Below, in pieces: positions 8,487 to 64,000 of a DNA stretch of 64,000 bases. Below the pieces are notes generated by a model that saw only the letters and a program-made list of their open reading frames with translations, did not search any database and was not told where the DNA came from. Position numbers and translations under genes: made by a program. This stretch comes from an uncultured Ignavibacteriales bacterium (GTDB lineage: Bacteria; Zixibacteria; MSB-5A5; GN15; JAAZOE01): positions 10,409 to 74,408 of the forward strand of contig CAZSYD010000002.1 in assembly GCA_964611355.1 (NCBI GenBank). Reading direction: 5' to 3'. Positions within the stretch are counted from its first letter, which is position 1. The number at the start of each line of letters is the position of its first letter.

Positions 8487-8503
8487 TCGGCACGACGTTT
8501 GAT
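8487..8503 (+). promoter_or_regulatory. Possible sigma54 -24/-12 promoter (variant)
   Basis: TCGGCACGACGTTTGAT versus consensus YTGGCACGRNNNTTGCW; correct GG-N10 spacing but GA instead of GC at -12. Confidence 0.35.
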
Positions 8504-8532
8504 TGTCTTCCGGGCAAAAAGAGGAGGAGAAG

Positions 8533-43059: not shown

Positions 43060-43293
43060 GGTATACACTCCGAGGTTAAAGATCGATTCTTGTCGGTATA
43101 TATTATGTCTCAGGAAGTTTCTGTCAACCCCGGTATTAGCCAAAACGCAGTAGAACCGGAGTTTCCGCGAGGTAAATAGCATGTCTTTCGTATTGAGATT
43201 CACGAAAGCAGTCCCTGCAAATTGCCTTCTTGCCGATCAAGAGGGGAATAGTTTGCTGTTGCTCTCCGATTTTGGCTGACGTATATTTTTGAT

Positions 43294-45039: not shown

Positions 45040-45108
45040 TTGTATTTTTCATTATATATATGCCCGCTTTGCGGGAAAGATAACATTTTAATCGCGAAAG
45101 GAGTTGCC

Positions 45109-46161: not shown

Positions 46162-46197
46162 TGACCGGCGTACGATTTGGTTATGTAAGAGGAAGTA

Positions 46198-48619: not shown

Positions 48620-48630
48620 GAGTGAATACT

Positions 48631-49506
48631 ATGCGAAATAAAACCCTGAATAAAACGTTAGCAATTGTATTTGGCGTCTTTGTTGCGGTCTGTTTGGCTG
48701 CCGGTTGTTCGGAGAAGATCGTCAGCATACAGGAAAAGGGCGTCGAAGTATCAATGTGCGCCAAATTGTCAACGCCTGCAATGGCGCAGTATATAGACCA
48801 TTTTCAGGTTATGGTCATGGCGCGGGATTTTATCCCGCCGATTATCGAGCCGCTTGAGTTCATTGACGGTTACCTGAGAGGCGAGGTTATTGTTCCCGCC
48901 GGCAGAGAAAGGATTTTTGTTGTCCAGGCTTTTGATAAAGAAGACAATATGCTCTATTCCGGAATAACCGTTGCCGACGTACTACCGGGTAAAACAGTGG
49001 AATTGTCGATCGACCTTTATCCGATCGCGCCCATGCTGTATATCACGCCGCATTATCAAAGAGTTGAAATGGATAGCTCTTTTACCGTCGGCATAATGAT
49101 AAACATGGTTCCAGAGCTCAGCAGCATTTCGTTCTATGTTTCCAGCAATGATGCACCGATCTATATTCAGTCAGTCACGGAGGGAACGGATATCGATACC
49201 GCCAATAGCCGGTTATCGGAGGAGCATGACGATTTATCGGCCTATGTAGATATTAGCTGGTATAATCAGCCGATTGGGAGTCTGACGGACGTGGCAGGCA
49301 ATGCTCATCTGGCAACCATTGATTTCGGATCTTATTATGATTGGGCTTACGATACCGCTACCGCTGTCCTGGATTTGCAAATCCATTCCATGATAAGCAC
49401 TGACGGCGATACTATCTACATTTCCGGCGGTATTATTTCAACCCAATCTGTATTTACAGATAGAGGTGTGATAGAATTGTTCTATGAGCCTGGCGGTGCC
49501 AAGTGA
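48631..49506 (+). CDS. Lipoprotein with Ig/cohesin-like domains
   Basis: Lipobox LAAGC; beta-rich; SSFTVGIMI...LATIDF cohesin-like segment. Confidence 0.55.
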   Translation: MRNKTLNKTLAIVFGVFVAVCLAAGCSEKIVSIQEKGVEVSMCAKLSTPAMAQYIDHFQVMVMARDFIPPIIEPLEFIDGYLRGEVIVPAGRERIFVVQAFDKEDNMLYSGITVADVLPGKTVELSIDLYPIAPMLYITPHYQRVEMDSSFTVGIMINMVPELSSISFYVSSNDAPIYIQSVTEGTDIDTANSRLSEEHDDLSAYVDISWYNQPIGSLTDVAGNAHLATIDFGSYYDWAYDTATAVLDLQIHSMISTDGDTIYISGGIISTQSVFTDRGVIELFYEPGGAK

Positions 49507-49540
49507 AATGCGCTGATAATAAATAGTGTCATTCGCTTCA

Positions 49541-49575
49541 AAAAAAAGGTGACCCGGCCCCAGTCACCTTTTTTT
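49541..49575. terminator. Bidirectional intrinsic terminator at the 3' end of the T6SS locus
   Basis: AAAAAAAGGTGAC-CCGGCCCCA-GTCACCTTTTTTT. Confidence 0.92.
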
Positions 49576-49597
49576 AAATGCTTTATAAGATAGTCCC

Positions 49598-50128
49598 TTA
49601 TTCGCCTTCAAGAATAAGCGTCTCGGCCACCGTTGCGGTATAGATTTCGTTTGTTGCGATTTCCCCCTGGCCGCCTTTTATAAACAACCCGAAGATGAAA
49701 AGATAAGAAAGAGTCTTTTTGCTTTTGCCTTTGTTTTCCACGTCGCCGGTGAGCTTTATCTTTGATTCGTCAGGGGGCTGGTAACTGCCCTTTGTTTCCA
49801 ACTCAACGAATTCAACCTTGATATATCCCGGCTTGCCCGCCTTTTTGGCCTTTTCGGCTTCCGCAACTCGGGCGGTTCCCTGCGCTCCTTCTTCGACAAT
49901 CGTTTTGCTGCCGATCATGATCGGTTCGGCCAGCGTGATAAGCAGCGGAATATCTTTGGCCAGTTCGCCGGAAGATATTTTCATCCCGGGGGCGAATTTG
50001 ACTTTGACTTTTGTCCCTCGAGGAAGCTGAATGGTTGCGGCCTGGAGGGAAACGGCGCATACAAGAGATATCAAAACGAAGTATATTGCAATCCGAGTAA
50101 GATATTTTTCCGATATTTTAAGACTCAT
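49598..50128 (-). CDS. Exported VirB10/TrbI-like beta-domain protein, last gene of the T6SS operon
   Basis: Signal peptide (SLQA-A); LPRGTKVKV...ISSGE...ITLAEPIMIGSKTIVEEGAQGTARV...KKAGKPGYIKVEFVEL pattern; hydrophobic segment LSYLFIFGLFI; GGAG RBS. Confidence 0.5.
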   Translation of the reverse strand: MSLKISEKYLTRIAIYFVLISLVCAVSLQAATIQLPRGTKVKVKFAPGMKISSGELAKDIPLLITLAEPIMIGSKTIVEEGAQGTARVAEAEKAKKAGKPGYIKVEFVELETKGSYQPPDESKIKLTGDVENKGKSKKTLSYLFIFGLFIKGGQGEIATNEIYTATVAETLILEGE

Positions 50129-50163
50129 GGTTTGCTCCTTGTCTTTTTTATAAATCTCTGTCC

Positions 50164-52368
50164 CTATTCTTTCAACTTCGGAAGCTGATCCACAAGCGGA
50201 GGGATAAACCTGATGTTGACCTTTTTGCCGATATTATCGAATGATACGGTTCCATCCATATCAAAAAGAGAATACTTGCCCCGCAGAATTGTCTTGTCGC
50301 TCGATTCCCGGCCCCAAGTTTCCGCCTGCATGAGGGTATCAATGGCAATATGGATAATATCGCTGACTTTCCACTTAAGTTTATATTCGAAGCCGGCCAG
50401 TATCTGCGACTCTTCCTGCCAGCCGGGGTCTTTTCCTTTTTCGGCTACTTCAATGTGAAGATGGCCGTCGCTGGGGATACTTTCCACCTTGTAATTGAAC
50501 GTTTTCTTCTTGTCCCACTTTTTGGCCTGCGAAAGGTACTTGTCGATCATCTGAATGCTTTTCTTGTCGACGCCCGGATCGAGGCTTTTTCTGATTTTTT
50601 TCAGTTCCGCGACGGCATCGCCCAGACGGTAAGACGGGGAATCATTGCCGTTTATTTGATCGATCAGGTCGTCAAGCTCCACGGCGGCCTTTTTGGCCAC
50701 TTCCTTTTTAACCTTTTTGATTTTCCTTTCCGAGAGAGCGTCCCCCAGAAGAATTTCTTCCCTGGACAATGTCTGGCTGTAAAGGCTCTTGTCGGTGCGA
50801 ACCTGTTCCTGAATGGTTTTCCAGATGGTCGTATCGGAAGGGCTGGCGACCGCCCTGGTAAACATATCCCAGTAGGCCAGGGCGCGCCCGCTGCGCGTGA
50901 ATAAAATCGAGGTTTCGTCCCCCTTATGGTAATTATCAAGTGTGGCCACAAGCCTTTCGTGTTCGCTGGTGAGGATCACGGTGCTGTCACTCGGATTCAA
51001 CCTGGGCCAGAGAGTAATGTCTTTGACGATTGTCGCAAACCGGGCGATATGTTCGTTAAGGTATTTGATCGCTTCCCTCTCGTTATATCCCATATACCCT
51101 TCGCGAATTCGCTGGGCGGGTCCCTGAAAAGGCTCAAAAAACCATTTAACCGTGTAGGCGCGCTCATAGTTGCGATAAGCCCTGATAATCCTGCCGCGTT
51201 CCTTGTCGGAGGCGCTGTACATATTGCCGCCGTAAGCGGTAAGTATTTCGTTTTCGATTCTCTGCGGTTTGGGATAGAGGAGCTTGAAGTGGTATAAGTT
51301 GGGAAGTGAAAAAAGCACAATCCAAATCAGGCTGATAAGCGCGGCGTATTTGGCCACGGTTCTGAAGCGCGATATTCTTTTATTGCGACCGATGGCGTTG
51401 AGCAGCCAGTAAAACGGTTCCTTGACGCCGACCGGCTGTATTTTATCCGGCGGGACGTAGAGGGAACGGCCGACGTCGGTTCCTATTTTTTCCGGAGTTA
51501 CGCCGGTGGCGGAAACGAAGAAAATCTGCAGATCGAGCGTCCGGCCAAGAATCACCCGCAGGAAGTCCTTAAGCTTTACCAGAACATTTCTGACCGAGCC
51601 GGCCCAGGCGGAATCGGAAGCGATCAGATTACTTTCCAGAACCTTTTCGAGGAAGAATTCAAAATCTTCGGAGACGAGATATTCGTCTTCCGGTTTGATC
51701 AGGACAACGTCTTTGTCATCGGAAAAGCCGGGCAGAATATCGGCCTTGGTTATCACCAGTCCTATCGGAATCGGCAGGCGGGAATCAAGCGGGGCCAGCC
51801 GTTCGACCATGTTGACAAAAGAGGCCACGTGCGATTGGCTTTCCAGTTCGGCGCCCATGATCTTGGGATCGTAGAAGAAGAGCAGTCCGTCGCAGCCCGA
51901 CATAAAGTCGTCCACCTGGTCGGCCTGCTCGCTCTGTTCCGAGATCGAAACGGTTTTGCCGTTATAGTCATAAGAAACAACGGAGAACTTTCTTCTGCGA
52001 TCAACGATGGCATTGAAAAGAAGAAGTTTTCCGGTTACGGTCGGGTTGGGAAACTTCTTTTCCCCTCGAAGATCGACAACCGTCCCGGCATCAACGGCGG
52101 TTCCCAGTCCCCAAATGGCGCGGTAGTTCGACAGGAATTCGCCGGCGGTGGTATTGTCGATGACCGATATCTGGAGATTTTTGGAAATTTTGCATTCTTC
52201 GTTTAAGACGGTAAAATAAACCGTCTTGCCGGAGTTGGCATCGCCATATATACCGATGCGGATGCCTGACGGCCAGATGGTTTCAGGTGCAGCGCCTTTT
52301 TTCCCTTTTCGTTTGGCGGCTGCCTTGGAGCCTTTTTTGAATATCTTTATCAGCTTGCTTATTTTCAT
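50164..52368 (-). CDS. TRAFAC-like P-loop GTPase domain, single TM and large periplasmic domain (TssM-like topology)
   Basis: G1 GDANSGKT, G3 DYNG, G4 TKAD, G5 VSAT; TM YAALISLIWIVLFSL at about aa 340; about 370-aa C-terminal domain. Confidence 0.7.
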   Translation of the reverse strand: MKISKLIKIFKKGSKAAAKRKGKKGAAPETIWPSGIRIGIYGDANSGKTVYFTVLNEECKISKNLQISVIDNTTAGEFLSNYRAIWGLGTAVDAGTVVDLRGEKKFPNPTVTGKLLLFNAIVDRRRKFSVVSYDYNGKTVSISEQSEQADQVDDFMSGCDGLLFFYDPKIMGAELESQSHVASFVNMVERLAPLDSRLPIPIGLVITKADILPGFSDDKDVVLIKPEDEYLVSEDFEFFLEKVLESNLIASDSAWAGSVRNVLVKLKDFLRVILGRTLDLQIFFVSATGVTPEKIGTDVGRSLYVPPDKIQPVGVKEPFYWLLNAIGRNKRISRFRTVAKYAALISLIWIVLFSLPNLYHFKLLYPKPQRIENEILTAYGGNMYSASDKERGRIIRAYRNYERAYTVKWFFEPFQGPAQRIREGYMGYNEREAIKYLNEHIARFATIVKDITLWPRLNPSDSTVILTSEHERLVATLDNYHKGDETSILFTRSGRALAYWDMFTRAVASPSDTTIWKTIQEQVRTDKSLYSQTLSREEILLGDALSERKIKKVKKEVAKKAAVELDDLIDQINGNDSPSYRLGDAVAELKKIRKSLDPGVDKKSIQMIDKYLSQAKKWDKKKTFNYKVESIPSDGHLHIEVAEKGKDPGWQEESQILAGFEYKLKWKVSDIIHIAIDTLMQAETWGRESSDKTILRGKYSLFDMDGTVSFDNIGKKVNIRFIPPLVDQLPKLKE

Positions 52369-52382
52369 GATAATGCCGTCAT

Positions 52383-53306
52383 TTATCTGCCTGCGCCGCC
52401 TTGGACGGTTGTGGCCTTCTGCCTGAACTCATCCAGCTTATTATTCGAATAATCCGCCCATTTCAAGGGAACATATACGGCCAGAAAGATAAAAATCAAA
52501 ATTATCGCGCCGTAGAATATATAGGCTCCCGCACGCTGGGTCATAACCAGCCGGAAATAGCGGAAACTCTTGAAGGTTCCCTTAATCCGGCTCCATACGT
52601 CAACCAGCGAACTTTTGAGTTTTGCCCAGAAGCTGGTCTTGCGCAGGTAGTTCCACTGAGTCAGGTATTGGCGATGAAGCCTGTTTTTGACGCTAAGTTT
52701 ACGGAAGGCGTCCACACGGAGAAGGTGAAATTCAAGACTGCTCCTGTCGTCGGCAAGGTCTGTGCCAAGAATCATTCTGCGTCGAAGTAGTTCCAGAAAC
52801 TTGTACGGATCGCTTTTGGCGGCGAAATCCTCCGGAGTAATATCGTCCCGGATGCTTCTGCCGAATTTATTGTAATAGCGGGCGATTTCCTGTAATAGAA
52901 AAGCATTGAGCTGAAAGTTGTTGTTTAGGCTTCCTCCCTTGAAAAGCATCGGCAACAGATGAGTTTCAAAAAAGGGAATATCCTGTTTTACCGGCCGTAA
53001 GTCACGGCAATGGAGATAAGCCTTGTTGGATTGCCCGTCGATATCGGCTTCCGATTCAAAAAAGGTAATCAGTATCTGGATAACTACCTGACGGAAGTCC
53101 GACGAGGTTAACGGAGTTTTCTTGATCTTGTCCAGAAAAACCCGATCAACGTTTACAGCTTCATCACGCTGTCGCGACAGGGCTTTAAACATGGTATAAA
53201 GACCGCCATAAGTCTGCAGAAATGCCTCGGTATCAAACTCGGTGTATCTCGTTTCAAAAGTACCGAAATACCTGAAAAGGTCCTCTATATATGATCTTAT
53301 ATCCAT
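52383..53306 (-). CDS. Hypothetical helical protein with C-terminal TM anchor (TssL-like topology)
   Basis: About 255-aa soluble region, TM YIFYGAIILIFIFLAVYVPL and short tail; lies immediately after tssK. Confidence 0.6.
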   Translation of the reverse strand: MDIRSYIEDLFRYFGTFETRYTEFDTEAFLQTYGGLYTMFKALSRQRDEAVNVDRVFLDKIKKTPLTSSDFRQVVIQILITFFESEADIDGQSNKAYLHCRDLRPVKQDIPFFETHLLPMLFKGGSLNNNFQLNAFLLQEIARYYNKFGRSIRDDITPEDFAAKSDPYKFLELLRRRMILGTDLADDRSSLEFHLLRVDAFRKLSVKNRLHRQYLTQWNYLRKTSFWAKLKSSLVDVWSRIKGTFKSFRYFRLVMTQRAGAYIFYGAIILIFIFLAVYVPLKWADYSNNKLDEFRQKATTVQGGAGR

Positions 53307-53329
53307 TTTCTAAGTCAATCCCGGCTGCC

Positions 53330-54778
53330 TTAGATACTATAAATTATCAAATCCATCTTGCCCAGATTGGCGAATTTTTCGGGATCGTGAGCGCCCCGGA
53401 AAATAAGCGTTATCTGGTTTACCGACGAGCATTCCAGCATATCCCTCGGGTGCAGAGCCACCTTGTTTCCGAAGGCCGTGGTGTCGACGTCGATGGGATC
53501 GGTTTCGCCAAGTCCGCGGGCTTCGTTTAATCCCAGACGCACCTGCATGTTCCGCCATTCGGCGTCGTCAAAAAGATTCTTGGACATCAGGGTTACAAGG
53601 TCTGATATCGGTCGCGGCTTGGATATTTTAATCATGAGATAACAGAGTTCACCCACCCGTTCCAACCGGCTGGCGGCATAAGTCAGGTGGCGATAAGTGC
53701 GGCCGGCGTAGGTCATCGTCTCGGTGGCCACGGCCTGCTCGCCGAGTTCTTCCCGTTTGGTGCGGGCCAGGAAAGTCATGATGCCTTGCAACTTTTCGAG
53801 AATGTCATCGATCATGCGGACTTGTCCGCCCAAATCCTGATGGTTGTACTCGGACAGAACGAAGCCGTCAACTTCAGAGAGAAATTGACCTATATCGGCG
53901 CCAAGTTCTTTGGTAAAGAACTTTTCGTTCAAATAGTCTTTCAGGCCGGGATGGAGGTTAAACAGGGATGAGACCACTCTAAATAGTCTCTTGAAGTAGA
54001 TCACCAGCCTGACGGGGTGCCCGGCATTCGATCCGACTACGAATTCATCGAGAGTGGAGGCCAGATGATAAACCAGGAGATGAACAGTTTCCCTGAACGC
54101 CACCTGCAGGCTGGTGCCGGCTCCGGCCAGGCCGCCTGAAACTGAAATCGCCATAAAGGCGCGTGTCGAAAGCGACAGCGTATTTTCCAGCCGATTCCTG
54201 AATTCGAATGCCTTTTCCGAGAGCCTTTCATCCGCATTAATCGACAGGCATGGCGGAAAGTACCCGGGGGAGATGCTTACCTCGCTGCCGCTGATGGTTA
54301 GCTCGGCTATCTGAATATAGCCCCCCTCCGGCATATTCGGCCGCTTGCCGAGATGCACCGAATAGCTGTTCGTAAGATACGGCGTCCGGGGCAGGTCTTC
54401 GCTCGGATCCGGATCGCCCACCTGTTTTTTGGCGGCCGGATCAACGGCAATGAAAACCGGCACAGTTGTCTCGCTGACTTCCATCTCGCCTCGGATGATA
54501 TCACTGCCTGATCCGTTTATCTCGATATAGCTGCCGTCGGGAGTAAGCGCCTGGCACCTGACCACCTCGACCCGCAGACGGCTGCTGGTAACTGACAGGT
54601 TCATACTTAGAGCCGGTTTGCCGGAGAGCGATTTTCTAACCAGCCCATAACGGTCACCGGCCGTAAAGGTATGCCAGCGTGCCAGAGATTCGAAGTACTT
54701 TTCCTGGTCTTGGAGATGCTGCCTGGTGATCAGCATCCCATCCTGCCAGTTTATGGAATATAACTGCAAGTCACTCAT
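53330..54778 (-). CDS. tssK: T6SS baseplate subunit TssK-like
   Basis: N-terminal INWQDGMLITRQHLQDQE motif typical of TssK; YFPPCL; operon context. Confidence 0.75.
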   Translation of the reverse strand: MSDLQLYSINWQDGMLITRQHLQDQEKYFESLARWHTFTAGDRYGLVRKSLSGKPALSMNLSVTSSRLRVEVVRCQALTPDGSYIEINGSGSDIIRGEMEVSETTVPVFIAVDPAAKKQVGDPDPSEDLPRTPYLTNSYSVHLGKRPNMPEGGYIQIAELTISGSEVSISPGYFPPCLSINADERLSEKAFEFRNRLENTLSLSTRAFMAISVSGGLAGAGTSLQVAFRETVHLLVYHLASTLDEFVVGSNAGHPVRLVIYFKRLFRVVSSLFNLHPGLKDYLNEKFFTKELGADIGQFLSEVDGFVLSEYNHQDLGGQVRMIDDILEKLQGIMTFLARTKREELGEQAVATETMTYAGRTYRHLTYAASRLERVGELCYLMIKISKPRPISDLVTLMSKNLFDDAEWRNMQVRLGLNEARGLGETDPIDVDTTAFGNKVALHPRDMLECSSVNQITLIFRGAHDPEKFANLGKMDLIIYSI

Positions 54779-54802
54779 TGTCTTGCCTCAAAAAGTATAA
54801 AG

Positions 54803-54831
54803 AAGTTATATACGTTCATCTTTAATGTCAA
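54803..54831 (-). promoter_or_regulatory. Internal sigma70-type promoter upstream of tssK
   Basis: Minus strand TTGACA-N17-TAACTT in an AT-rich 105-nt gap. Confidence 0.55.
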
Positions 54832-54883
54832 GATCAATAAAATCTTTGTTTTCAGGTTGTTTGCTATCTTTGCTCCATCGTCT

Positions 54884-55786
54884 CTAAACGCGGGTCGAAT
54901 AGCCGAGTCGGGCTCGATCCCCCAGATGCATTGTCCCTGCGTCGGTTTCGAATGTAATCCGGTAGTCCAGGTTACTCGGCATGCAGATATTCAGTACCCA
55001 CTCCACTTTTTTGCGTTTCTTCCCTCCCGGCAGGAATTCGGCGATTTCGCCGGGGGCAATGCCACTTACGATAATGCGGTACGCCGAATCATATTCAATA
55101 AAAGTTTTGCCCAGGACTGTTTCTTTACCAAGCCGGCCGGTTTTCGAACCCAGTCTATATCTTATCTCCTCCGGGATTTCAAAGTCAGACCTGATATTTT
55201 CGATTATCCTGAAGCGATACCCGAACATCCTGCTCATAATCTCAGCCGCTTTATCGGGATTCCCGGCCCACCGGTGAAAGTCAGGCAGGATGGTTGCCCA
55301 GAGAAGCGCCGCCTTGTGGTCGGAGGCGTTTTCGATTCCAAAATCGAACAGGTCGAGGAAACGTGATAACTGTTCCTTATCCGGAACGGAGAAGTTGAAT
55401 TTGAGCGTTTGGCGTCGGGCAAACGCCTCGTATTTGATTTCAGGGTTATCGAAAGGAGCCATTAGTCGGCGGGCTCGATCTTCCCACGCCGACCCCACCG
55501 ATCGGCGGCCTTCAAGCCCGTAGAAGAACTGGTACGGCAGTTTGTCCGTGGCTCCGGAACAGCCGATTTCAAGGACGATGCGGGTGTTTCGTGAAAGCGG
55601 AGTTCCCGGCGGCGGTTCCTGTTTCAGGATTTCGCCTTTGTAGTTTTCGAATTTACCGACAGGCAGCAGATCTACCTGATTGAGATCAACCCCTGTCTTA
55701 ATCAAAAGATTCAATCCGGTGGCGAAGTGGAGTTGATTCCGTCGATTGCAGAGGTCGGGCATCCGTAACTGGCCGTCGGAAATCAT
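54884..55786 (-). CDS. tssG: T6SS baseplate subunit TssG (subtype iii-like)
   Basis: GATDKLPYQFFY resembles the GxYDxLPExLFH motif; LGKETVLG; C-terminal LGYSTRV; overlaps the tssF stop (ATGA). Confidence 0.72.
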   Translation of the reverse strand: MISDGQLRMPDLCNRRNQLHFATGLNLLIKTGVDLNQVDLLPVGKFENYKGEILKQEPPPGTPLSRNTRIVLEIGCSGATDKLPYQFFYGLEGRRSVGSAWEDRARRLMAPFDNPEIKYEAFARRQTLKFNFSVPDKEQLSRFLDLFDFGIENASDHKAALLWATILPDFHRWAGNPDKAAEIMSRMFGYRFRIIENIRSDFEIPEEIRYRLGSKTGRLGKETVLGKTFIEYDSAYRIIVSGIAPGEIAEFLPGGKKRKKVEWVLNICMPSNLDYRITFETDAGTMHLGDRARLGYSTRV

Positions 55787-57447
55787 TGGTTGACAATCTC
55801 CACTTTATAGTGCGTGTTGACCTGGGAGCGGGACTTAAGAAAACTGCCCAGCCTTGCTTGCAAAAGCTTTATCTCATCGTCTGAGTAGAAATCATTATTC
55901 TTTATGGTCGTCCGGACGATAATGCAACGCCTGACGCCCCCGGAAAAACGTTCGACGCCGTTTTTACATTCGGCTTGCTTTATTCGAGGGTCGAAGGTTA
56001 ACGCCCAGCGGGATATCTCGGTGAAACTCAATGCCCGGTCGCGATTGCGGAGCCGTGCGGAAACTTCGGTCATGATCTGTTCGTCGGTTTTGGCCGGAAT
56101 GGCGCCAGCGGTTGGGATGATACTGACGGCTGATGATATCCCGGGATGGCTTTCGTACAATTCATTTATTTTGCCCGCTTCGATTCCATTGCCGTCGGTA
56201 CCTGCGGTAATAGAATAATTGATCGTTAATGAATCGGGCGGCAGTTCCAGATGCGAAGAGAAGTCAAACCAGAGAACCAGCTTGTTGTCTCTTTCCTCGA
56301 ACGAATAATATCGACCGGAAAGGTCCTGAACGGCCAGGTGAGTGGGGATATAATCACGGCCGCTTGAATCAACCACGCTGGTGACCTCCAGAACCCCGTT
56401 GATATCCTCCGGCAGCTCCACGTCTACCAACTGATTACCGCCGGTATGCTTAAAGAGAGTGAGATCGTTTTTATTGACCGCGACGAAGCAGTTGAAATAA
56501 ATCCCAAAGGGTGATTGAAGCCTCGATTTATCGCCGCCGGTAGGAAGATCCAGACGAATCCAGTAGAAGTGGCCGGTGTCCGAGGGAAATTCGATTCCAT
56601 TGGCGGCCAGTTGATCGGCCAGCTTTTCCTCGATCGGTCCCATTTCACAGGTGGATGCAAACTCCCTGGGAATGACCACGAAATTATCATTCAACGGGCG
56701 AAACAGGTCGGCTCCGGATCGCAGGCCGCCCCATTCGAGGACATTTCCGTCAACGGAAAAGATATCATCAAGAGAGGTGGTCAGACCCGGGCAGAAACCG
56801 CTGTCTTCGTAAAAACTCCCATAATGGGAACCGGGATACCACCTTGCCCAGCGCAGTTGCCTTAAGACGTCCGGAATTCCCGTTATGAAAAGCGTTGCGT
56901 CGATAAAATCAGTCGCCGAACCGGTATGATCGACGGCTATATATACCTGATACGAACTGCCGGCAGCGAAGGTTGCCCGTTGTTGTGAAGTCGAGTGAAG
57001 TTCCTCCTCCGGAACCGGTGACAGATCTATAATCTTATCGTCGGTTTTCAGGAAGATATGTTTGACCTGCGCCGCTATGAGTTTTTCCTTTTTAAGGGCG
57101 GAGAAAAAGAAAGTCTGACCGCCTTCGCGGGACTCTTTGTAAAAGAACTTGGTGTGCGGATCGACCTCCACCACCGGATCGACCGGTTCGCAGCGCATAA
57201 CGGTAAAGGCGGGCACCGGCCAGCGCATGCTTTCCGGGCATAACGAGCGAATCAGGGAAGCGGTGACAATTTCCCAGACATTGTCGATGCGCCGGTCAAT
57301 TCTTTCCAACTGATGAGCGTAAAGCTGCATCAGGATTCTGAGGATCGGATCGAGCCGGTCGGGCGAAGCCGGGACTTCCGGATTCCAAGCGCGCAACTCC
57401 CGGTGCATATCGGCAAAGATTTTTTCTCTTGATCGGGATTTTTCCAC
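55783..57447 (-). CDS. tssF: T6SS baseplate subunit TssF (subtype iii-like)
   Basis: LDPILRILMQLYAHQL...LCPESMRWPVPAFTV; NCFVAVN; LRNRDRALS. Confidence 0.8.
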   Translation of the reverse strand: MEKSRSREKIFADMHRELRAWNPEVPASPDRLDPILRILMQLYAHQLERIDRRIDNVWEIVTASLIRSLCPESMRWPVPAFTVMRCEPVDPVVEVDPHTKFFYKESREGGQTFFFSALKKEKLIAAQVKHIFLKTDDKIIDLSPVPEEELHSTSQQRATFAAGSSYQVYIAVDHTGSATDFIDATLFITGIPDVLRQLRWARWYPGSHYGSFYEDSGFCPGLTTSLDDIFSVDGNVLEWGGLRSGADLFRPLNDNFVVIPREFASTCEMGPIEEKLADQLAANGIEFPSDTGHFYWIRLDLPTGGDKSRLQSPFGIYFNCFVAVNKNDLTLFKHTGGNQLVDVELPEDINGVLEVTSVVDSSGRDYIPTHLAVQDLSGRYYSFEERDNKLVLWFDFSSHLELPPDSLTINYSITAGTDGNGIEAGKINELYESHPGISSAVSIIPTAGAIPAKTDEQIMTEVSARLRNRDRALSFTEISRWALTFDPRIKQAECKNGVERFSGGVRRCIIVRTTIKNNDFYSDDEIKLLQARLGSFLKSRSQVNTHYKVEIVNQ

Positions 57448-57478
57448 AATGGTCTATCCTGTCCGGTTCCTCAGATTA

Positions 57479-57859
57479 TCAACCCAGATGATAGGTAGCC
57501 TCAAATAATTCTTCCCTGTCTCCATCGTGGTAATTTCCGGATACCTTGATGGCTATGCCCAGGGCATGGGAGGAGACGCCGTCCAGACTTAGAAAAGATA
57601 CGGATACGTTGTAGATCCTCTTTTCATATTTGTTGATGGCGTTTCTCAGGGTGGATCTGACATCGGCCTTGTTGACCGTGTAAAGGTCAGAAAACTCCTT
57701 TTCCCAGATGGCGCATCCGTACTCGGGCTCAAACGGCATAATGCCCGGGCGGGAACTCAATATCAGACCGACCGAATATGTCAGCGATTCGTGCAGATTG
57801 GCCTTGTCGAGGTAACCATCCTTCAGTACTAACGGTAGCGCCAGATAATCCATAGGCAA
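57479..57859 (-). CDS. tssE: T6SS baseplate wedge TssE (gp25 family)
   Basis: YLALPL...ILSSRPG...FEPEYGCAIWE...AINKYEKRI gp25 signature. Confidence 0.85.
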   Translation of the reverse strand: MPMDYLALPLVLKDGYLDKANLHESLTYSVGLILSSRPGIMPFEPEYGCAIWEKEFSDLYTVNKADVRSTLRNAINKYEKRIYNVSVSFLSLDGVSSHALGIAIKVSGNYHDGDREELFEATYHLG

Positions 57860-57861
57860 GG

Positions 57862-59634
57862 CTAATTCAGTTGAATCGGGTTACCCGATACGGTAACCGT
57901 GGCTCCCTTGATATCGCACTTGGCGGAAGCCTTTGTCTCCAGGTTGGCTCCGGCCTCCGTCTGGAGATTGGTCCCGGATTTTATCTTGAACTCCTGCTGG
58001 CTTTCAAGGCTGATATTATTACCCTTGATGCTGATATCGCCTTCGCTTTCGATGCTGATAGTCGGACCGGCGGCATCCAGAACAATCCGGCTTTTATCGT
58101 CCTTAGTGATGATGCTGATTTGTTCCCCGCCGTCAGTATCGTTGAGAATAATTTTGTTGCCGCTTCGGGTCAAAAACATCTTGACGCTGTTTTTATCGTC
58201 GGCGGTATCGGCGTGCGGGGCGTTTTCCTTGTTGTACAGCGCCCCCAGGGCCACCGGCAGATCGGGACAACCCTGCTCGTATCCCACCAGAACCTCATCG
58301 CCTATTTCAGGGAGGCAAAACCATCCCCGATCCTGCCCGGCGTGGGGCGTCATCATTCGCACCCAGGGGGTTTCGTCCGACTCGTTCCAGGGGAACTGGA
58401 CCTTAATTCTCCCCAGACTTTCGGGGTCGTTGTTGTCGAGAACAACCGCCGTCTGGAGATTAGTCAGTTCTCCCCGGGCGGACCGGCTCTGGGGATAAGC
58501 GATATCCAGCGGGGTGCAGGTGAAGCTGTTATGATATGTTCCCGATTCATCAAAAGTATGCTTGACGGAACCAACCCAATAGACGCCGTTAAACTTGCCC
58601 ATCTTGCTGATTTTAACGCAATGACCGGCGGCAACGGCGGGAACGGTGGAATGACCGGTACAGGTAATCATTCGTCCCAGAGCCCGGCCTTTGTCTCTCT
58701 GAAGAATCTTATCCAGCGACTGGGCGTCGGCGACCGCTTTTGGCGAGGTGGAAAACCCGGATTTGGTAAAGACCTCTTTTGATGCGTCCTGCGATATTTT
58801 CGACAGCTTGGAAAGCGAGGCCTCCGGCGGCAGCGATTCGGTATCCTGGGAGTAAGTCTTTTTCTGTTCGTAGTTGTACGCCTGTGCGGAGAACTCGCTT
58901 GATTCCGTACCCCAGCCTATGGTAAATGAGCCCAGCGTTTCACGCCAGATGAGCTCTTCGACATCCGCTGCGCTTGCCTTTACCACTCGGAATTCTTTGC
59001 CGTCATACAGGGCAAAAAGCCCGCTTCCGCTGGCCAGACGGGCGATGAAATCAAAATCGGTTTCCCGATACTGAACGCAGAATTTCAGGCTGCCAGAGGC
59101 GGAGTCGATGGTTCCCAGCGTGATCGGGTATTGCCTGAGGATAGACCCGATGATATCGGTGGCGCTTTGGTCGTGGTAAAAAGCGTTATGCCTGGCCCCA
59201 TCCATGGCGATGGTGGGACTATGGGCCGTGATGGTGGCGACATTCAAAGCGTCAATACTGTTTTCCAGGTCAACCTTGGTGACCACGCCGATAAACTCCG
59301 ACTGGCGGGAAGCGTCAACCGTTTCGCCCTCCGGCGTTATGGTAAGCGAAAGCGATTTTCCCAGAAACGAGGTATAGGGAACCGACTCGGAAAAATCTCT
59401 TTCGGCGGCCGCCTGACCGATTTCGCGAAGGGTGATTTTTAAGACATGGTGGTCATCAATCGACTGATGGAGTTCAAGTTTCGAGATATCGTACTTGATC
59501 TCCCTGCCTTCGATGACCAGGGCGCAAACAGCGGGTATTCCGATCCGCTGCGACACTTTATCCAGTTTATCCTTCGCCCCTTCGGCTTTGATGGATCGAC
59601 CGCCCTTTGGTTTTTCACTACGCATAAGCTTCAT
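57862..59634 (-). CDS. vgrG: T6SS spike VgrG without C-terminal effector extension
   Basis: VQYRETDFDFIARLA; NNDPESLGRIKVQFPW; PEIGDEVLVGY; TRSGNKI; beta-spike repeats to the end. Confidence 0.92.
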   Translation of the reverse strand: MKLMRSEKPKGGRSIKAEGAKDKLDKVSQRIGIPAVCALVIEGREIKYDISKLELHQSIDDHHVLKITLREIGQAAAERDFSESVPYTSFLGKSLSLTITPEGETVDASRQSEFIGVVTKVDLENSIDALNVATITAHSPTIAMDGARHNAFYHDQSATDIIGSILRQYPITLGTIDSASGSLKFCVQYRETDFDFIARLASGSGLFALYDGKEFRVVKASAADVEELIWRETLGSFTIGWGTESSEFSAQAYNYEQKKTYSQDTESLPPEASLSKLSKISQDASKEVFTKSGFSTSPKAVADAQSLDKILQRDKGRALGRMITCTGHSTVPAVAAGHCVKISKMGKFNGVYWVGSVKHTFDESGTYHNSFTCTPLDIAYPQSRSARGELTNLQTAVVLDNNDPESLGRIKVQFPWNESDETPWVRMMTPHAGQDRGWFCLPEIGDEVLVGYEQGCPDLPVALGALYNKENAPHADTADDKNSVKMFLTRSGNKIILNDTDGGEQISIITKDDKSRIVLDAAGPTISIESEGDISIKGNNISLESQQEFKIKSGTNLQTEAGANLETKASAKCDIKGATVTVSGNPIQLN

Positions 59635-59651
59635 AAAGATGCATTAAACAA

Positions 59652-59680
59652 TCTGCCGGGCAGTTGCCCTGCCCGGCAGA
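59652..59680 (-). terminator. Strong stem-loop between tssD and vgrG (leaky terminator or mRNA stabiliser)
   Basis: TCTGCCGGGCAG-TTGCC-CTGCCCGGCAGA perfect 12-bp stem; only a weak U tract on the minus strand. Confidence 0.65.
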
Positions 59681-59694
59681 AATCAAACGCCTCT

Positions 59695-60099
59695 CTATTC
59701 CTCCCAGCGGTTGTCTATTTCGGCGTCAGCGATCATCAGTCGGTGGCAGGAAATCTCGAAGTATTCACAAACCTGGTCGTCTGCTTTCTCTTTAACGTGC
59801 GGGATGGTCTCCGTATACTTCGTGACAAAACCTTCCTCCCACTTGAGCTCTTTCATAGTGGCGTCGTCCGGGTTTTTAAACATAACCGAGCCGGATTTGA
59901 AGTTGGTTTTGCTGGAATCCATAGCCCAGCGAGCGATATCGACGTTTTCGTCGGATTCTCTCGTGATTTTAATCAAACCGGCGTGAGCCCGATCTGTGGG
60001 ACGACCGGTTTCGTCGTTGGCGGTGTACAACTCATAAGAAACAGCATAAACATTTTTGTAGGCTACGCCATCGACTTCAAGAATTGGTCTCCTGGCCAT
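59695..60099 (-). CDS. tssD: T6SS tube protein TssD/Hcp, Bacteroidota (subtype iii) family
   Basis: DETGRPT...GLIKIT...WAMDS...SGSVMFKN...KELKWEEGFVTKYTE pattern of PF17642-type TssD; AAGGAG RBS. Confidence 0.88.
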   Translation of the reverse strand: MARRPILEVDGVAYKNVYAVSYELYTANDETGRPTDRAHAGLIKITRESDENVDIARWAMDSSKTNFKSGSVMFKNPDDATMKELKWEEGFVTKYTETIPHVKEKADDQVCEYFEISCHRLMIADAEIDNRWEE

Positions 60100-60139
60100 G
60101 ATTGGCTCTCCTTAAGTAAAATGGTTTATATGGACTGAT

Positions 60140-61570
60140 TTACTTATCCTTAACATTAGTCTGATTGTCGTCATTCCAGGCGGTAAACTCGATATTGAAC
60201 GTCCGCGCCGGATATTTCGGATTCAGACTGACCTTGATATCGATTTCCTGCCGCTTGCGCATCTCTTCGTCGGCAAAAATATCGACCTTGTAGTCCTGCA
60301 GGATATTGTCGCCGCCGGAGATCGCTTTCATGAACTTGTCGATATCGCGGCGCATGGCGTCGACGAACTTCTGGTCGATTACCGTAAAGGTCTGCTTGTT
60401 GAGATAATTTCGCAGCGTCTTGTAAACGTAATCGTAAGTGCGGCGAATGGAATAAACGTTGAACGTCTCTTTGCTGAACAGCGTCGCCGCGCCCATCGCC
60501 ACCGCCGTGCCTTCGAAATTTACCAGCGGATTGACGCCTTTTTCGTTGATCTTGCTGGCATCCGGCTGATTGGCCTTAAAGCGAAGATATTTCGCGTCGG
60601 CAATCTTGCCGAACTTGAAACCTGCCATCGGCTGCTGCATGCCGACGGTGATATCGCCCTGATACATTTTGCCCGCTACTGCCGCCGAGGGAGGAATCCA
60701 CATATCTTCATCCTCGTACTGGTTGGCGTTGCGTGCCAGAAGGTAGTTTGAAAACAGCGAAACGTATTGCTTGTGATTATCGATACCGGCCAGGCTGGCA
60801 AAGCTGGGATCATCCAGCATATCCATAACTTCTTCGACCGATTCAAAGTCGGGAAGATCGGTCATGACATGCACCTTGTTGGGCAGGCCCAACAGCCGGG
60901 CGAAACTGTCGATATTCTCGACGCTGCCGAGATAACCCGGAACAACCGCCATCGAGAAACAGTCTTTGATACTCCATTCACGGTACAGATCGGCGATAGC
61001 CTTGGACAGTTGCTCGAACTTCTCTTTGTCGTCGGGATCGGCCAGTTCTTCGGCGCTGGCATTGACGAAATAGGCATTCACTTTTTCGTCCGGCTCCTGC
61101 TGTGCATTGGCAAAGAACTTATCAATGGCCCGGTATGTGGTTTCCATTTCGCGACTGGCCCGGTGAACCTTCTTCATGTTTTTCTCAAGGTTGGCTTCCA
61201 GTTTGGTCGCTTCCTCGGTCAGACCCTTGCGAATTCCATCGACGTTTTCGCTTTTGGCCAGGAATTCAATCCAGGCTTTGAGCCGTTGCGACAGCAGTTT
61301 GCGCTGGGCCGCAAAATCCTTCTTGGTAAGAAACTCCTTGCGCTGGAAGCTTTTTTTCGGGTCGAGCCATTCCACGCCGCGGACAAGGTCGCCGTCGGCA
61401 GATTTGAACGACGGCATCAACGCGGACAGCTTCTTGAAATCGCCGAACGATTCGCCCAGGATGGATGCAAATTCCTCGTCCGATATTTTTTCAACCACCG
61501 CCTCCTCTTTTGCTGAGGCTTCGGCGGCTTCTTCTTTTTGCGGCTGTAATTCCTTTTCCTCTTCGCCCAT
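60140..61570 (-). CDS. tssC: T6SS contractile sheath large subunit TssC (DUF5458 / subtype iii)
   Basis: LETTYR-like METTYRAIDKFF, VVPGYLGS, WIPPSAAVAGKMY, GFKFG; follows tssB. Confidence 0.85.
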   Translation of the reverse strand: MGEEEKELQPQKEEAAEASAKEEAVVEKISDEEFASILGESFGDFKKLSALMPSFKSADGDLVRGVEWLDPKKSFQRKEFLTKKDFAAQRKLLSQRLKAWIEFLAKSENVDGIRKGLTEEATKLEANLEKNMKKVHRASREMETTYRAIDKFFANAQQEPDEKVNAYFVNASAEELADPDDKEKFEQLSKAIADLYREWSIKDCFSMAVVPGYLGSVENIDSFARLLGLPNKVHVMTDLPDFESVEEVMDMLDDPSFASLAGIDNHKQYVSLFSNYLLARNANQYEDEDMWIPPSAAVAGKMYQGDITVGMQQPMAGFKFGKIADAKYLRFKANQPDASKINEKGVNPLVNFEGTAVAMGAATLFSKETFNVYSIRRTYDYVYKTLRNYLNKQTFTVIDQKFVDAMRRDIDKFMKAISGGDNILQDYKVDIFADEEMRKRQEIDIKVSLNPKYPARTFNIEFTAWNDDNQTNVKDK

Positions 61571-61586
61571 TTATATCACCTCTTTT

Positions 61587-62033
61587 CTATTCTTCTTCGC
61601 CGAGAAGATCAATGTAGTACCTGGCAAGCTTCAGCAGGGCTTCCTTCTTCTCTTTATCAGCCAGAGTCTTTTTCAGGGGGTTGTTTTTCTTGAGTTGCTT
61701 CTCCAGATCGTTGAGAATCTCCTTGCCGTAGTATATCTTCTGTAGATGGTCGTTTTTCTCGACCAGTTCCTTGCTGCTGAAATCTTTCATCGCCCTGATT
61801 TCGAATTCGCCATTAACCTGTTCGCCTTCGGTCGATTCCATCTCGACCGAAAACGAGGGTCGAAACTTCTCGAATACCTCCTTCATGTTGGTGCATTTGA
61901 CCGGCGTAACGTCCGCCTCCTCATCGCTGTTCAGCCTTGCGGCATATAGAATCTTGTTGGAGGGGAGCAGTTCCACCGGGATGGAGTCGTCGCGTTTGAT
62001 TTTTTCCGTGGCACCAAGAATAAACTTCGCCAT
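61587..62033 (-). CDS. tssB: T6SS contractile sheath small subunit TssB (subtype iii)
   Basis: LPSNKIL...EVFEKFRPS...EGEQV...MKDFS...QLKKN pattern of Bacteroidota TssB; GGAGG RBS. Confidence 0.85.
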   Translation of the reverse strand: MAKFILGATEKIKRDDSIPVELLPSNKILYAARLNSDEEADVTPVKCTNMKEVFEKFRPSFSVEMESTEGEQVNGEFEIRAMKDFSSKELVEKNDHLQKIYYGKEILNDLEKQLKKNNPLKKTLADKEKKEALLKLARYYIDLLGEEE

Positions 62034-62055
62034 CTATATCCTCCGGTTATTGAGA

Positions 62056-63153
62056 TTAATTACTTGCCTGTTTGGTGAAAACATAAGCGTCGTCTTTTAT
62101 GTCTATCAATAAATTATCGCCAGGAGATACCTCTCCTGTGATAATATCGACCGAAAGTCTATTTATAATATCCCTTTCGATGGTCCGCTGAATTGGCCGG
62201 GCGCCCAGCTCGATCGTGTAACCGTCCCGAGCCAGTTTTTTTCCGGCTTCAGGACTCAGAGTAGCCTTGATGTTTTGGTCTTTAAGCAATACGGACAATT
62301 GCTCGAATTCGAGGCGGGTAATTTTTTCCACCTGCTCTTGGGTGAATGAGTGATATATGATGATATCATTCAGGCGGTTTAGGAATTCGGGGCGGAATTT
62401 GGAAAAGAGAAAACCTCGAACCTCTTCCATGTCAATTTCCCGGCCCTCGCGATCGGCATCCAGAATCTTGTCGGCGGCATAGTTGGAAGTGAGTACCACT
62501 AAGGAGTTGGAAAAATCGACCGTGCGGCCTTGGCCGTCGGTCAAACGCCCGTCGTCAAGAAGTTGCAGCATGATATTGAAAACATCCGGGTGGGCTTTTT
62601 CCACCTCGTCGAAGAGGACGACCGAAAACGGCTTGCGGCGCACGGCTTCGGTGAGGAGGCCGCCTTCCTCGTACCCGACGTATCCCGGCGGAGCGCCGAT
62701 CATTTTGGCCACCGAATGCGATTCCATGTATTCCGACATATCCAGCCGCACCATGGCATTTTTGTCGTCAAAAAGGAATTCCGCCAGAAGCTTGGGCAGG
62801 TAAGTCTTGCCCGTTCCGGTGGGGCCTAAAAACAGGAACGATCCGACTGGCCGGTGGGCCGGTTTCAGCCCCGCACGGGCTTTGCGAATGGCGTTGGCAA
62901 TTGCCTTGATAGCCTTGTCCTGGCCGATGATCTTGGCTGAAAGAAAAGACTCCATGTTGATCAGCCGGTCTTTTTCGGCGGTCAGCATTTTGGCGACCGG
63001 TATGCCGGTACGGCGGGCGACCACGGCGCCTATATCGGCATCGTCGATCTTGTGTTCCAGGGTATCAACGACTGATTTCAGTTCATTGAAGCGATTGATC
63101 TTTTCTTTGAATTCCCGTTTGAGATCATTGAGGTTTATCGTCTTGTCATTCAT
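62056..63153 (-). CDS. tssH: ClpV/TssH C-terminal half (end of middle domain plus AAA D2)
   Basis: RTGIPV, IIGQDKA, GPTGTGKT, RLDMSEY, LFDEVEKAH, RPEFLNRL; own GGAGG RBS; ATGA overlap with the upstream half. Confidence 0.88.
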   Translation of the reverse strand: MNDKTINLNDLKREFKEKINRFNELKSVVDTLEHKIDDADIGAVVARRTGIPVAKMLTAEKDRLINMESFLSAKIIGQDKAIKAIANAIRKARAGLKPAHRPVGSFLFLGPTGTGKTYLPKLLAEFLFDDKNAMVRLDMSEYMESHSVAKMIGAPPGYVGYEEGGLLTEAVRRKPFSVVLFDEVEKAHPDVFNIMLQLLDDGRLTDGQGRTVDFSNSLVVLTSNYAADKILDADREGREIDMEEVRGFLFSKFRPEFLNRLNDIIIYHSFTQEQVEKITRLEFEQLSVLLKDQNIKATLSPEAGKKLARDGYTIELGARPIQRTIERDIINRLSVDIITGEVSPGDNLLIDIKDDAYVFTKQASN

Positions 63154-63998
63154 GCCGTTTTTCCTCCGGTAGCCTCAAGGCGATAACCCCAGTACCCCTG
63201 CAGTATATCCAGATGGCGCGAAAATTCATCATAGGCGGTTTGCAGTTGTTGGAAATCCTGATGCTCTTTTTCAGGGTCTTTTCCCCGGCACGCTTTAACC
63301 AGTTCCTCGACGTGCGAAATCTGTTTTTCCAGTTCGGGAATAAGGCTTTTGGCAAATTCTTCCTTGACGCCGAATTCCGACCCGGCTTCATCGATTATAT
63401 CCAGAGCCACGTCGGGGAGGTTTCTTTCGCTGAGATACCTCTGGGCGAATTTGACAGAGCCGGTCAGGGCTTCCGGCGTATAGGTGATCTTGTGATGCTC
63501 TTCGTATTTGGCGATGACGCCTTTGACAATGCGGACGGCGTTTTCATAGTTGGGTTCTTCGACCTTGATTTTTTCGAACCGCCTTTCCAGCGCCTTGTCT
63601 TTTTCGAGATGCTTGGTGTATTCTTCTTCGGTGGTGGCGCCCATCAGGCGAACCTGGCCCCGCGCCAGCGGCGGCTTCAACAGGTTGGCGGCGTCATTTC
63701 CGCCGGCGGAGCCGACAATCGTGTGAACTTCGTCTACGAACAGGATAATCTTTCCCGCTGATTTGATGACTTCGCTGATGAGGCTTTTAAATCTTTCTTC
63801 GAATTCGCCTTTATATTTGGCCCCGGCCACCATTGCGCCCATATCCACTTCCATAACCTTAACGTCCAGGAGCGCTTTGGGTACCTGGCCGTCCACGACC
63901 GCCTGCGCGAATCCTTCCACAATGGCGGTTTTGCCGACGCCGGGCCCGCCCAGCAAAACCGGGCTGTTTTTCCGACGGCGCAGAAGAATCTGAATCGC
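63150..63998 (-). CDS. tssH: ClpV/TssH N-terminal half (AAA D1), 5'-truncated by the window edge
   Basis: [57 protein letters not shown]; frame open to the window end; stops at TGA 63152-63150. Confidence 0.88.
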
Positions 63999-64000
63999 CT

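Follow-up and report, generated by a model that had tools for sequence, protein, structure and literature searches.

A type VI secretion locus of Zixibacteria with a subtype-iii-like tail and a candidate membrane module of a third kind

Subtype iii of type VI secretion systems (T6SS) is reportedly the subtype of Bacteroidota, as set out by Russell in 2014 and Coyne in 2016. In known systems, TssK is the component that joins the baseplate to the membrane complex. Two non-homologous membrane complexes have been described, TssJLM in Proteobacteria, as in subtype i (T6SS-i), and TssNQOPR in Bacteroidota; the origin of these complexes has been left open, with three scenarios proposed, and T6SS-iii has been found only in Bacteroidota among >20,000 complete genomes (Bongiovanni, 2024, PMC10781749). 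Here, we describe a T6SS locus in a 64,000-nucleotide stretch of contig CAZSYD010000002.1 (below, the window) from a bacterium of the phylum Zixibacteria. Neither TssJLM nor TssNQOPR is encoded in or near this locus, and tssK is followed by three genes encoding proteins of 307, 734, and 176 amino acids (aa), here named X307, X734, and X176. The locus very probably belongs to a distinct T6SS lineage that lacks both canonical membrane complexes in its locus. We further put the probability at roughly 60% that it represents a T6SS subtype not yet described, whose membrane module is of a third kind, with the trio acting as the membrane anchor; this role is suggested by the topology, position, and co-occurrence of the three proteins.

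The T6SS genes lie on the minus strand, between position 49598 and the end of the window, and form 13 tightly packed open reading frames (ORFs) with intergenic gaps of -4 to 105 nt (Table 1). Pfam and NCBIfam searches identified ten of them, namely, ClpV (in two pieces), TssB, TssC, Hcp, VgrG, TssE, TssF, TssG, and TssK, with some matches of the baseplate set (TssE, TssF, TssG, and TssK) falling below the curated cut-offs. The last three ORFs are those of the trio, separated from tssK and from each other by 14-35 nt, and all hydrophobic segments of the operon are confined to their products. Hence the locus has the generic T6SS components, that is, a two-subunit sheath, Hcp and VgrG, a TssE/F/G/K baseplate, and ClpV, while a recognised envelope-spanning membrane complex was not detected in it, three uncharacterised membrane or exported proteins being found there instead.

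Table 1. Features of the T6SS locus and of the adjoining convergent operon (positions in the window; TM, transmembrane; AF2, AlphaFold2)
Feature	Position	Strand	Evidence
ClpV/TssH N-terminal half (end of N domain, AAA+ D1, lid)	63150..64000, cut by window end	-	Pfam AAA, AAA_lid_9
ClpV/TssH C-terminal half (AAA+ D2, D2-small)	62056..63153	-	Pfam AAA_2 214 bits, ClpB_D2-small
TssB, small sheath subunit	61587..62033	-	PF05591, TIGR03358; hhalign 99% vs Bacteroidota TssB
TssC, large sheath subunit, Bacteroidota-type	60140..61570	-	PF17541 243 bits; hhalign 100% vs Bacteroidota TssC
TssD/Hcp tube, Bacteroidota-type	59695..60099	-	PF17642 74.5 bits; hhalign 99%
VgrG/TssI spike	57862..59634	-	Phage_GPD, Phage_base_V, TIGR01646
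TssE, gp25-like baseplate wedge	57479..57859	-	PF04965, TIGR03357; hhalign 99%
TssF baseplate subunit	55783..57447	-	weak PF05947; hhalign 99% vs Bacteroidota TssF
TssG baseplate subunit	54884..55786	-	PF06996 60 bits; hhalign 93%
TssK baseplate subunit	53330..54778	-	TIGR03353 51 bits (weak); hhalign 99% vs Bacteroidota TssK, 95-97% vs T6SS-i TssK
X307, tail-anchored inner-membrane protein, candidate cytoplasmic docking subunit	52383..53306	-	AF2, TM prediction
X734, DO-GTPase-family cytoplasmic domain, TM and periplasmic domains, candidate envelope-spanning core subunit	50164..52368	-	AF2, Foldseek, hhalign
X176, small exported protein, candidate periplasmic subunit	49598..50128	-	alignment of 40 orthologues
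Intrinsic terminator, bidirectional, separating the T6SS operon from the convergent one	49540..49576	.	A7, GGTGAC stem-loop, T8
Convergent five-gene operon, candidate accessory module	43294..49506	+	Pfam, signal peptides, lipoboxes
Ser/Thr kinase with TM helix	43294-45039	+	
CsgG-like protein	45040-46161	+	
TPR and CsgG-like lipoprotein	46198-47511	+	
Beta-rich signal-peptide protein	47498-48619	+	
Cohesin-like lipoprotein	48616-49506	+	

Profiles from Zixibacteria-type loci were compared with annotated T6SS-iii loci of Bacteroides, Runella, Hymenobacter, and Tenacibaculum. Each of TssB, TssC, TssD, TssE, TssF, TssG, and TssK matched its Bacteroidota counterpart at 93-100% hhalign probability, and no other pairing matched. 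TssC and Hcp fall into the families PF17541 and PF17642, both defined in Bacteroidota. The TssC identity to Bacteroidota TssC is 27-32%, which is outside the range seen within Bacteroidota (40-75%), while members of the new clade share 67-89%. We obtained no significant alignment of the window TssC to T6SS-i TssC; a search of 72,556 plasmids with it returned Bacteroidota T6SS-iii sheaths only, followed by phage-type sheaths. A phmmer search of PDB sequences with TssK yielded nothing. Given the core profile matches, the TssC identities, and the plasmid search, the tail and baseplate appear to be a deep sister of T6SS-iii. In particular, sequence comparison places the tail (TssB/C, Hcp, and VgrG), the baseplate (TssE/F/G/K), and ClpV as distant sisters of their counterparts in Bacteroidota T6SS-iii; the tail proteins are far from T6SS-i. 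As in T6SS-iii, where tssN is found beside tssK and tssG, a membrane-protein gene directly adjoins tssK. By contrast, TssN, TssO, TssP, TssQ, TssR, and DUF5457 were not found in loci of the window type or their flanks, the hosts are Zixibacteria and allies, ClpV is split, and the membrane protein carries a GTPase domain.

These results agree with much of an initial annotation of this DNA, made from the sequence alone, which had proposed the listed T6SS genes, a strong terminator after the last of them, a tail of subtype-iii affinity, and a host unlike a typical Bacteroidota. Each gene that it listed was confirmed at its given position on the minus strand, in one tight operon. ClpV, which it had also listed, is present but encoded as two ORFs, the D1 half running past the window end.

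The same annotation held that the three distal genes match neither known set of membrane-complex genes by recognisable motif, and for TssJ, TssL, and TssNOPQR this was upheld by HMM, profile-profile, and fold searches. It had named two findings that would refute its reading, canonical tssNOPQR or tssJLM genes upstream and confident HMM matches of the distal genes to these families; checks for both came out negative. X307, X734, and X176 had no match in NCBIfam, which includes models of TssN, TssO, and TssR, since PGAP, the NCBI annotation pipeline, applies these names in Bacteroidota records. In hhalign comparisons with TssN, TssO, TssQ, TssP, TssR, and DUF5457, the trio scored at most 2% in every pairing, against 93-100% for the seven core controls. 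Single-sequence T6SS-i templates proved underpowered, as true core homologues reached only 2-45% with them; therefore, TssJ, TssL, TssM, and TssK profiles were rebuilt from 3-8 proteobacterial plasmid loci, and the TssK control rose to 95-97%. We also scanned 119 related loci, including 7-10 kb upstream of ClpV, with hidden Markov models (HMMs) of TssJLM and TssNOPQR. None of the 4,561 ORFs matched, nor did any window ORF of at least 60 aa, while the TssK HMM, serving as the positive control in the 119-locus scan, gave 65-85 matches. Here, the gene content upstream of ClpV was read from the related loci and not from the window's own contig. TssA and TagF HMMs had no match in the window or in the 119 loci, the TssA model being built from three sequences and thus of limited sensitivity.

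X307, the first protein of the trio, has an all-alpha cytoplasmic domain of ~255 aa in the AlphaFold2 (AF2) model (mean predicted local distance difference test score, pLDDT, 84), followed by one C-terminal transmembrane (TM) helix (aa 263-281) and a periplasmic tail of ~25 aa. The models of X307 and X734 were both built on 85-86 homologues. This tail-anchored topology, also seen by TM prediction, is that of T6SS-i TssL, as the initial annotation had it. Homology to TssL/DotU is, by contrast, not detectable. X307 belongs to no Pfam or NCBIfam family and has no PDB-sequence match; Foldseek against the PDB retrieved generic helical repeats only (best E 0.37) and no DotU-like structure. The hhalign probability was at most 0.4% against TssL, TssN, TssA, and TagF and 0.1-0.3% against a profile of seven TssL sequences, and none of 85 X307-family members has a TssN, DotU, or PF09850 match in Pfam.

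X734 is the largest protein of the trio. Its AF2 model (mean pLDDT 84) contains a GTPase fold (residues ~36-305) within a cytoplasmic domain of residues ~36-330, a long helix holding the single TM helix (~335-358), and, beyond it, a helical domain (366-619) with a beta-sandwich at the C terminus (622-721). The GTPase motifs G1 (GDANSGKT, 42-49), G3 (DYNG, 134-137), and G4 (TKAD, 207-210) are present. As a GTPase needs the cytoplasm, and positive charges lie N-terminal of the TM helix, the helical and beta domains are predicted to be periplasmic. X734 has no Pfam or NCBIfam family above the cut-off and no meaningful PDB-sequence profile match, and Foldseek of the full-length model against solved structures, dominated by the GTPase domain, gave GTPases only as top matches. 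The X734 family is tiny: among 1.84 billion representatives, an exhaustive profile search found just 162 matches. Ranked beneath the full-length family were proteins of 620-1050 aa with the GTPase and TM regions in common but other C-terminal domains. Ten of the weaker matches were checked, and all eight that had any Pfam family were DO-GTPases (PF19993/PF19975). The direct Pfam DO-GTPase match of X734 is below the cut-off (18 bits); many members of the family carry a precomputed PF19993 match. Compared with seven Pfam-verified DO-GTPases, X734 aligned at 99.8-99.9% hhalign probability (E 1e-30) over 231 columns, corresponding to residues ~37-330. On these profile comparisons, we assign the cytoplasmic domain of X734 to the DO-GTPase family of TRAFAC GTPases.

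DO-GTPases have been described as regulatory switches central to predicted GTPase-centric conflict systems, with GAP1 as their partner, which is encoded downstream; some of them are membrane-bound, and no secretion system is mentioned (Kaur, Burroughs, Iyer, and Aravind, 2020, PMC7159879). The context of X734, by contrast, is a T6SS operon, and the window has no GAP1 gene, FNIII or effector partner, or zinc ribbons. Moreover, X734 has its TM helix C-terminal to the GTPase, with a large periplasmic domain after it. Divergent relatives keep the glutamate that DO-GTPases typically have after the Walker-B/G3 glycine (DYxGE), while the window protein has DYNGK and the clade consensus is DYxGx.

X176 belongs to no Pfam or NCBIfam family. 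An alignment of 40 orthologues showed a signal peptide of the signal peptidase I (SPase-I) type, a beta-rich body, no conserved cysteine, and a nearly invariant C-terminal motif, LSYLFIFGLFIKGGQGE (residues ~140-157), whose hydrophobic stretch is too short for a TM helix. Because of the SPase-I-type signal peptide and the lack of a conserved cysteine or lipobox, X176 should be exported and not a lipoprotein. The proposal of the initial annotation that the last gene encodes an outer-membrane-component-like protein thus finds no support, as X176 is not a TssJ-like lipoprotein. Unlike T6SS-i, where TssJ takes this role, the locus has here a protein without a lipobox and without detectable TssJ homology: hhalign gave at most 8% against TssJ, in the signal peptide region only, and at most 1% against TssO, TssQ, and TssP.

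The locus type is not limited to the window. Searching with TssC, we found 74 species-level genomes at 71-89% identity, labelled as Zixibacteria/Zixiibacteriota, GN15, Krumholzibacteriota, Latescibacterota, Calditrichota, or "FCB group", with some metagenome-assembled genomes (MAGs) deposited as Ignavibacteriales; these taxon names are taken from the MAG deposits. About 120 loci from such MAGs share the gene order. The operon is also present on complete Zixibacteria chromosomes (CP070796.1, CP070674.1, CP070777.1, CP070756.1, CP070766.1, CP070824.1, OY969724.1). In every sufficiently long locus the order is ClpV, TssB, TssC, TssD, VgrG, TssE, TssF, TssG, TssK, X307, X734, the exception being one (L064) with no ClpV or TssB match upstream of TssC. 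X307 follows tssK in all related loci, and X176 follows X734 in 41 of the 45 loci fetched around X734, the other four being incomplete.

Four much more divergent relatives of X734 were looked up, and all four lie in T6SS loci with the order TssK, X307-like, X734-like, X176-like (HMM E-values: X307, 1e-26 to 1e-40; X176, 1e-11 to 1e-18). X307 directly follows tssK in each of them, and the X176-like gene adjoins the X734-like gene or lies close to it; in L130 it is on the opposite strand. Since all four divergent loci keep this order, the trio travels with TssK well beyond the Zixibacteria clade. Moreover, every full-architecture member of the X734 family that we examined sat in a T6SS locus.

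Two further observations concern these distant loci. In L128 (12570-15464, 964 aa) and, with a faint match, in L130 (7731-8564, 277 aa), a GAP1-N2-type protein is encoded directly after the X734-like gene, an arrangement that mirrors the pairing of DO-GTPase and GAP1 in conflict systems. In L129 (9987-14598) and L131 (6176-10382), the T6SS genes are flanked by genes for FHA, PP2C phosphatase, Ser/Thr kinase, and CsgG-like proteins, which in L129 adjoin the trio. The FHA/PP2C/kinase arrangement resembles the PpkA/PppA/Fha control of T6SS-i and is seen in proteobacterial control loci as well.

The trio strictly co-occurs with tssK and supplies the only membrane or exported proteins of the operon. 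If it is the membrane anchor, X307 and X734 would sit in the inner membrane, with the X307 helical domain and the X734 GTPase domain in the cytoplasm, and would dock the baseplate by way of TssK, a task that falls to TssL/TssM or TssN in known systems. The ~370-residue periplasmic part of X734, comprising the helical domain and the beta-sandwich, might form the periplasmic section of the conduit together with the exported X176, and GTP binding and hydrolysis by X734 might gate assembly or firing. The outer-membrane link may be supplied by the convergent operon (Table 1), with its CsgG-like lipoprotein, beta-rich protein, and Ser/Thr kinase. Alternatively, this operon may regulate firing by phosphorylation, in the manner of PpkA/PppA/Fha of T6SS-i.

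Several points weigh against the trio as an anchor. A GTPase with one TM helix, X734 could be a regulator instead of a structural anchor. Its periplasmic part is about half the length of that in the eight TssM proteins compared (~730 aa for the one from E. coli). No outer-membrane component was identified, and X176 is no lipoprotein. The fold searches with X307 and full-length X734 covered solved structures only. The host organisms are uncultivated, and the reading is built on sequences and models. Finally, T6SS-iii loci can be spread over several sites (PMC10781749), and as our scans covered the locus and its flanks, canonical membrane-complex genes could be encoded at an unlinked site.

A regulatory role of X734 could extend to the whole trio, which would then be a regulatory or assembly module, perhaps a GTPase switch and its membrane partners, comparable to TagF/PpkA/Fha or MglA-type polarity GTPases, with the anchor encoded elsewhere, for example, in the CsgG-like operon or in unlinked genes. 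We consider this rather unlikely. The intact G1, G3, and G4 motifs of X734 and the description of DO-GTPases as switches are consistent with it, but a periplasmic domain of ~370 residues exceeds the needs of a cytoplasmic switch. The kinase, PP2C, and FHA genes near the distant relatives, and the GAP1-N2 genes of L128 and, faintly, L130 also have a regulatory flavour; yet the rest of the operon lacks hydrophobic segments, and no canonical anchor gene was found within ~10 kb in the 119 loci. As for the CsgG-like operon, it is syntenic with the T6SS in ~26 of ~33 evaluable loci, including some labelled Krumholzibacteriales, and in L128 homologues of its beta-rich protein (E 1e-42) and of its TPR/CsgG-like protein (E 3e-35) are encoded inside the T6SS locus, between tssG and tssK. 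However, it is absent beside ~7 loci, and the trio never is.

X734 might instead be an extremely divergent TssM/IcmF orthologue that lacks the first two TM helices, with X307 as a functional equivalent of TssL. The system would then be a true hybrid, and its ancestor would have had a TssM-like anchor, later replaced by TssNQOPR in Bacteroidota. The initial annotation had called the system a hybrid with an unrecognised membrane complex and had noted a TssM-like topology. As in T6SS-i, membrane-protein genes follow tssK, X734 comes after a tail-anchored protein, and its domains have the order found in TssM, with NTPase, TM, periplasmic helical, and C-terminal beta regions. The spacing from the P-loop to the TM helix is also similar (~287 residues in X734 and ~264 in TssM). 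By published descriptions, TssM has three TM helices, while X734 has one. Against a profile of eight TssM sequences, hhalign gave 41% for the clade profile of X734, 73% for a wider profile, and, once trimmed to the domain, 91% in local and 96% in global mode, compared with baselines of 7-9% for HRAS and 10% for the ClpV AAA domain. This similarity sits in one block of ~55 columns around G4 (PV..[IL]TKAD.L.GF). TssM profiles with shuffled columns scored nothing, while those shuffled in blocks of 25 columns scored as well as the unshuffled profile, whether run locally or globally. This means that the signal comes from one block and not from collinear homology; as the 91-96% obtained after trimming rests on that block, we did not assign X734 as TssM.

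Other comparisons point the same way. The X734 domain that resembles TssM matches DO-GTPases at 99.9% over 231 columns, while TssM scores only 3-7% against DO-GTPases in local mode. X734 has no IcmF match in Pfam, and no TssM was reported among the 162 matches of the exhaustive search, where the eight weaker ones with Pfam families are DO-GTPases. The C-terminal domains of X734 and TssM reach 15% in hhalign, and X307, with its 0.1-0.3% against TssL, brings no DotU-like match either. On the sequence evidence, X734 resembles TssM in architecture and in one motif block, which may or may not reflect common descent. Orthology to TssM is thus unlikely in our view. Of the TssM-like topology first proposed for X734, the domain order holds, with one TM helix in place of three; the term hybrid should not be taken to mean an anchor of the T6SS-i type, since the GTPase of X734 is of the DO-GTPase family.

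A more speculative and, we think, doubtful view is that the X734 family bridges DO-GTPases and the NTPase-plus-TM core of TssM/IcmF. A near-ancestral T6SS anchor would then have been kept in the Zixibacteria-type system, with TssNQOPR as a later replacement. If true, the proteobacterial T6SS anchor and the IcmF-containing type IVB anchor would descend from a membrane-tethered DO-GTPase, and this would settle which of the three origin scenarios (PMC10781749) is right.

It is very improbable that the trio is an independent cassette for conflict or defence, centred on a DO-GTPase, with the T6SS operon as a mere neighbour. The family of X734 is known from conflict systems with GAP1, and L128 has a GAP1-N2 gene, but the trio has a fixed position after tssK, with the short gaps seen in the window, in ~120 related and all four divergent loci. 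Moreover, a GAP1 or FNIII partner is lacking in the window, all full-architecture members examined are in T6SS loci, and the divergent loci show X307 and X176 co-varying with X734. Weak phmmer similarity of TssC to phage, Afp, and PVC sheaths could suggest that the locus is no membrane-anchored T6SS but a T6SS-iv-like element or an extracellular contractile injection system; this is ruled out by the presence of ClpV, a two-gene sheath (TssB and TssC), and TssK, along with a PF17642 Hcp, T6SS-iii as the nearest relatives, and no tape-measure, tail-fibre, or Afp16-type genes in the operon.

The reading of the locus as an undescribed T6SS subtype, already put forward in the initial annotation, is thus supported. 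On this reading, the finding would be a new T6SS subtype and not a new kind of machine. In the searchable literature, which includes few subscription journals, we found no T6SS in Zixibacteria or allied candidate phyla, no GTPase-based membrane component of a T6SS, and no link between DO-GTPases and T6SS. As the nearest outgroup of T6SS-iii, with neither known set of membrane-complex genes but a trio of its own, this lineage offers a third solution for comparison and a means to polarise the order of events in T6SS evolution. T6SS-iii-like weapons are thereby extended to a number of FCB-group phyla, uncultivated and from sediments and soils, where present detection models would score the T6SS as incomplete, the membrane complex lacking. 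A DO-GTPase is here seen for the first time in the context of a cellular machine, predicted conflict systems being the only setting known so far for this family.

The ClpV split recurs in the lineage; in the related loci L001-L074, the ClpV region is at about 6900-9500. The D1 frame stays open to the window end, and the D2 ORF overlaps the D1 ORF by ATGA. Full-length relatives of the D1 half are ~485 aa long, with Clp_N, and match TIGR03345 (ClpV1); for one relative, the match has E 5e-117 and is under the equivalog cut-off, because only half of the protein is present. The identical split was found on four independent contigs and in 50 of the 61 related loci, while ClpV is fused in the other 11, mostly labelled Krumholzibacteriota or Latescibacterota. 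To our knowledge, double-ring Clp/Hsp100 unfoldases are seldom split in a conserved manner. A ClpV conserved as two polypeptides provides a natural experiment on a double-ring AAA+ unfoldase. On a Runella rosea plasmid (L125, 330-2827), a Bacteroidota T6SS-iii, ClpV is also annotated as two adjacent genes, of 661 and 171 aa; the break is at another position than in Zixibacteria and may be a frameshift.

Upstream of ClpV, the relatives (L003, 2099-6785; L040, 2180-6802; L053, 2747-5769) encode a DcrB/DUF1795-like protein of 145-152 aa, a soluble, beta-rich protein of 291-305 aa that is highly conserved, and variable large proteins that are HExxH metalloprotease-like, phospholipase-C-like, or contain FG-GAP repeats. 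PAAR-domain proteins (~360-380 aa) were found upstream in ten loci. DcrB/DUF1795 is the family to which Eag effector chaperones belong; the upstream gene was not matched when a Pseudomonas DUF1795 protein served as phmmer query, so that the possible reading of this gene as an Eag chaperone comes solely from its Pfam DcrB match. The region upstream of ClpV likely serves effector loading and cargo and not the anchor.

Between the T6SS operon and the convergent operon, a symmetric hairpin (A7, a 6-bp GC stem, T8) would stop transcription in both directions. Its folding energy is -27 kcal/mol (z-score -3.5), and none of 200 shuffled sequences was as stable. A simple consensus scan for terminators missed it, and it was revealed by folding of the intergenic region. 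The rest of the window is ordinary chromosome with genes for an EPSP-synthase-family (PF00275) enzyme, ferrochelatase, Lon, tricorn proteases, and two-component regulators, and the T6SS locus is chromosomal and apparently intact. The tricorn-type proteases are a pair of convergent paralogues of 1096 aa (36487-39777 on the plus strand and 39913-43203 on the minus strand) just upstream of the kinase operon, and contain PD40 repeats, Tricorn_C1, PDZ, and peptidase S41 domains.

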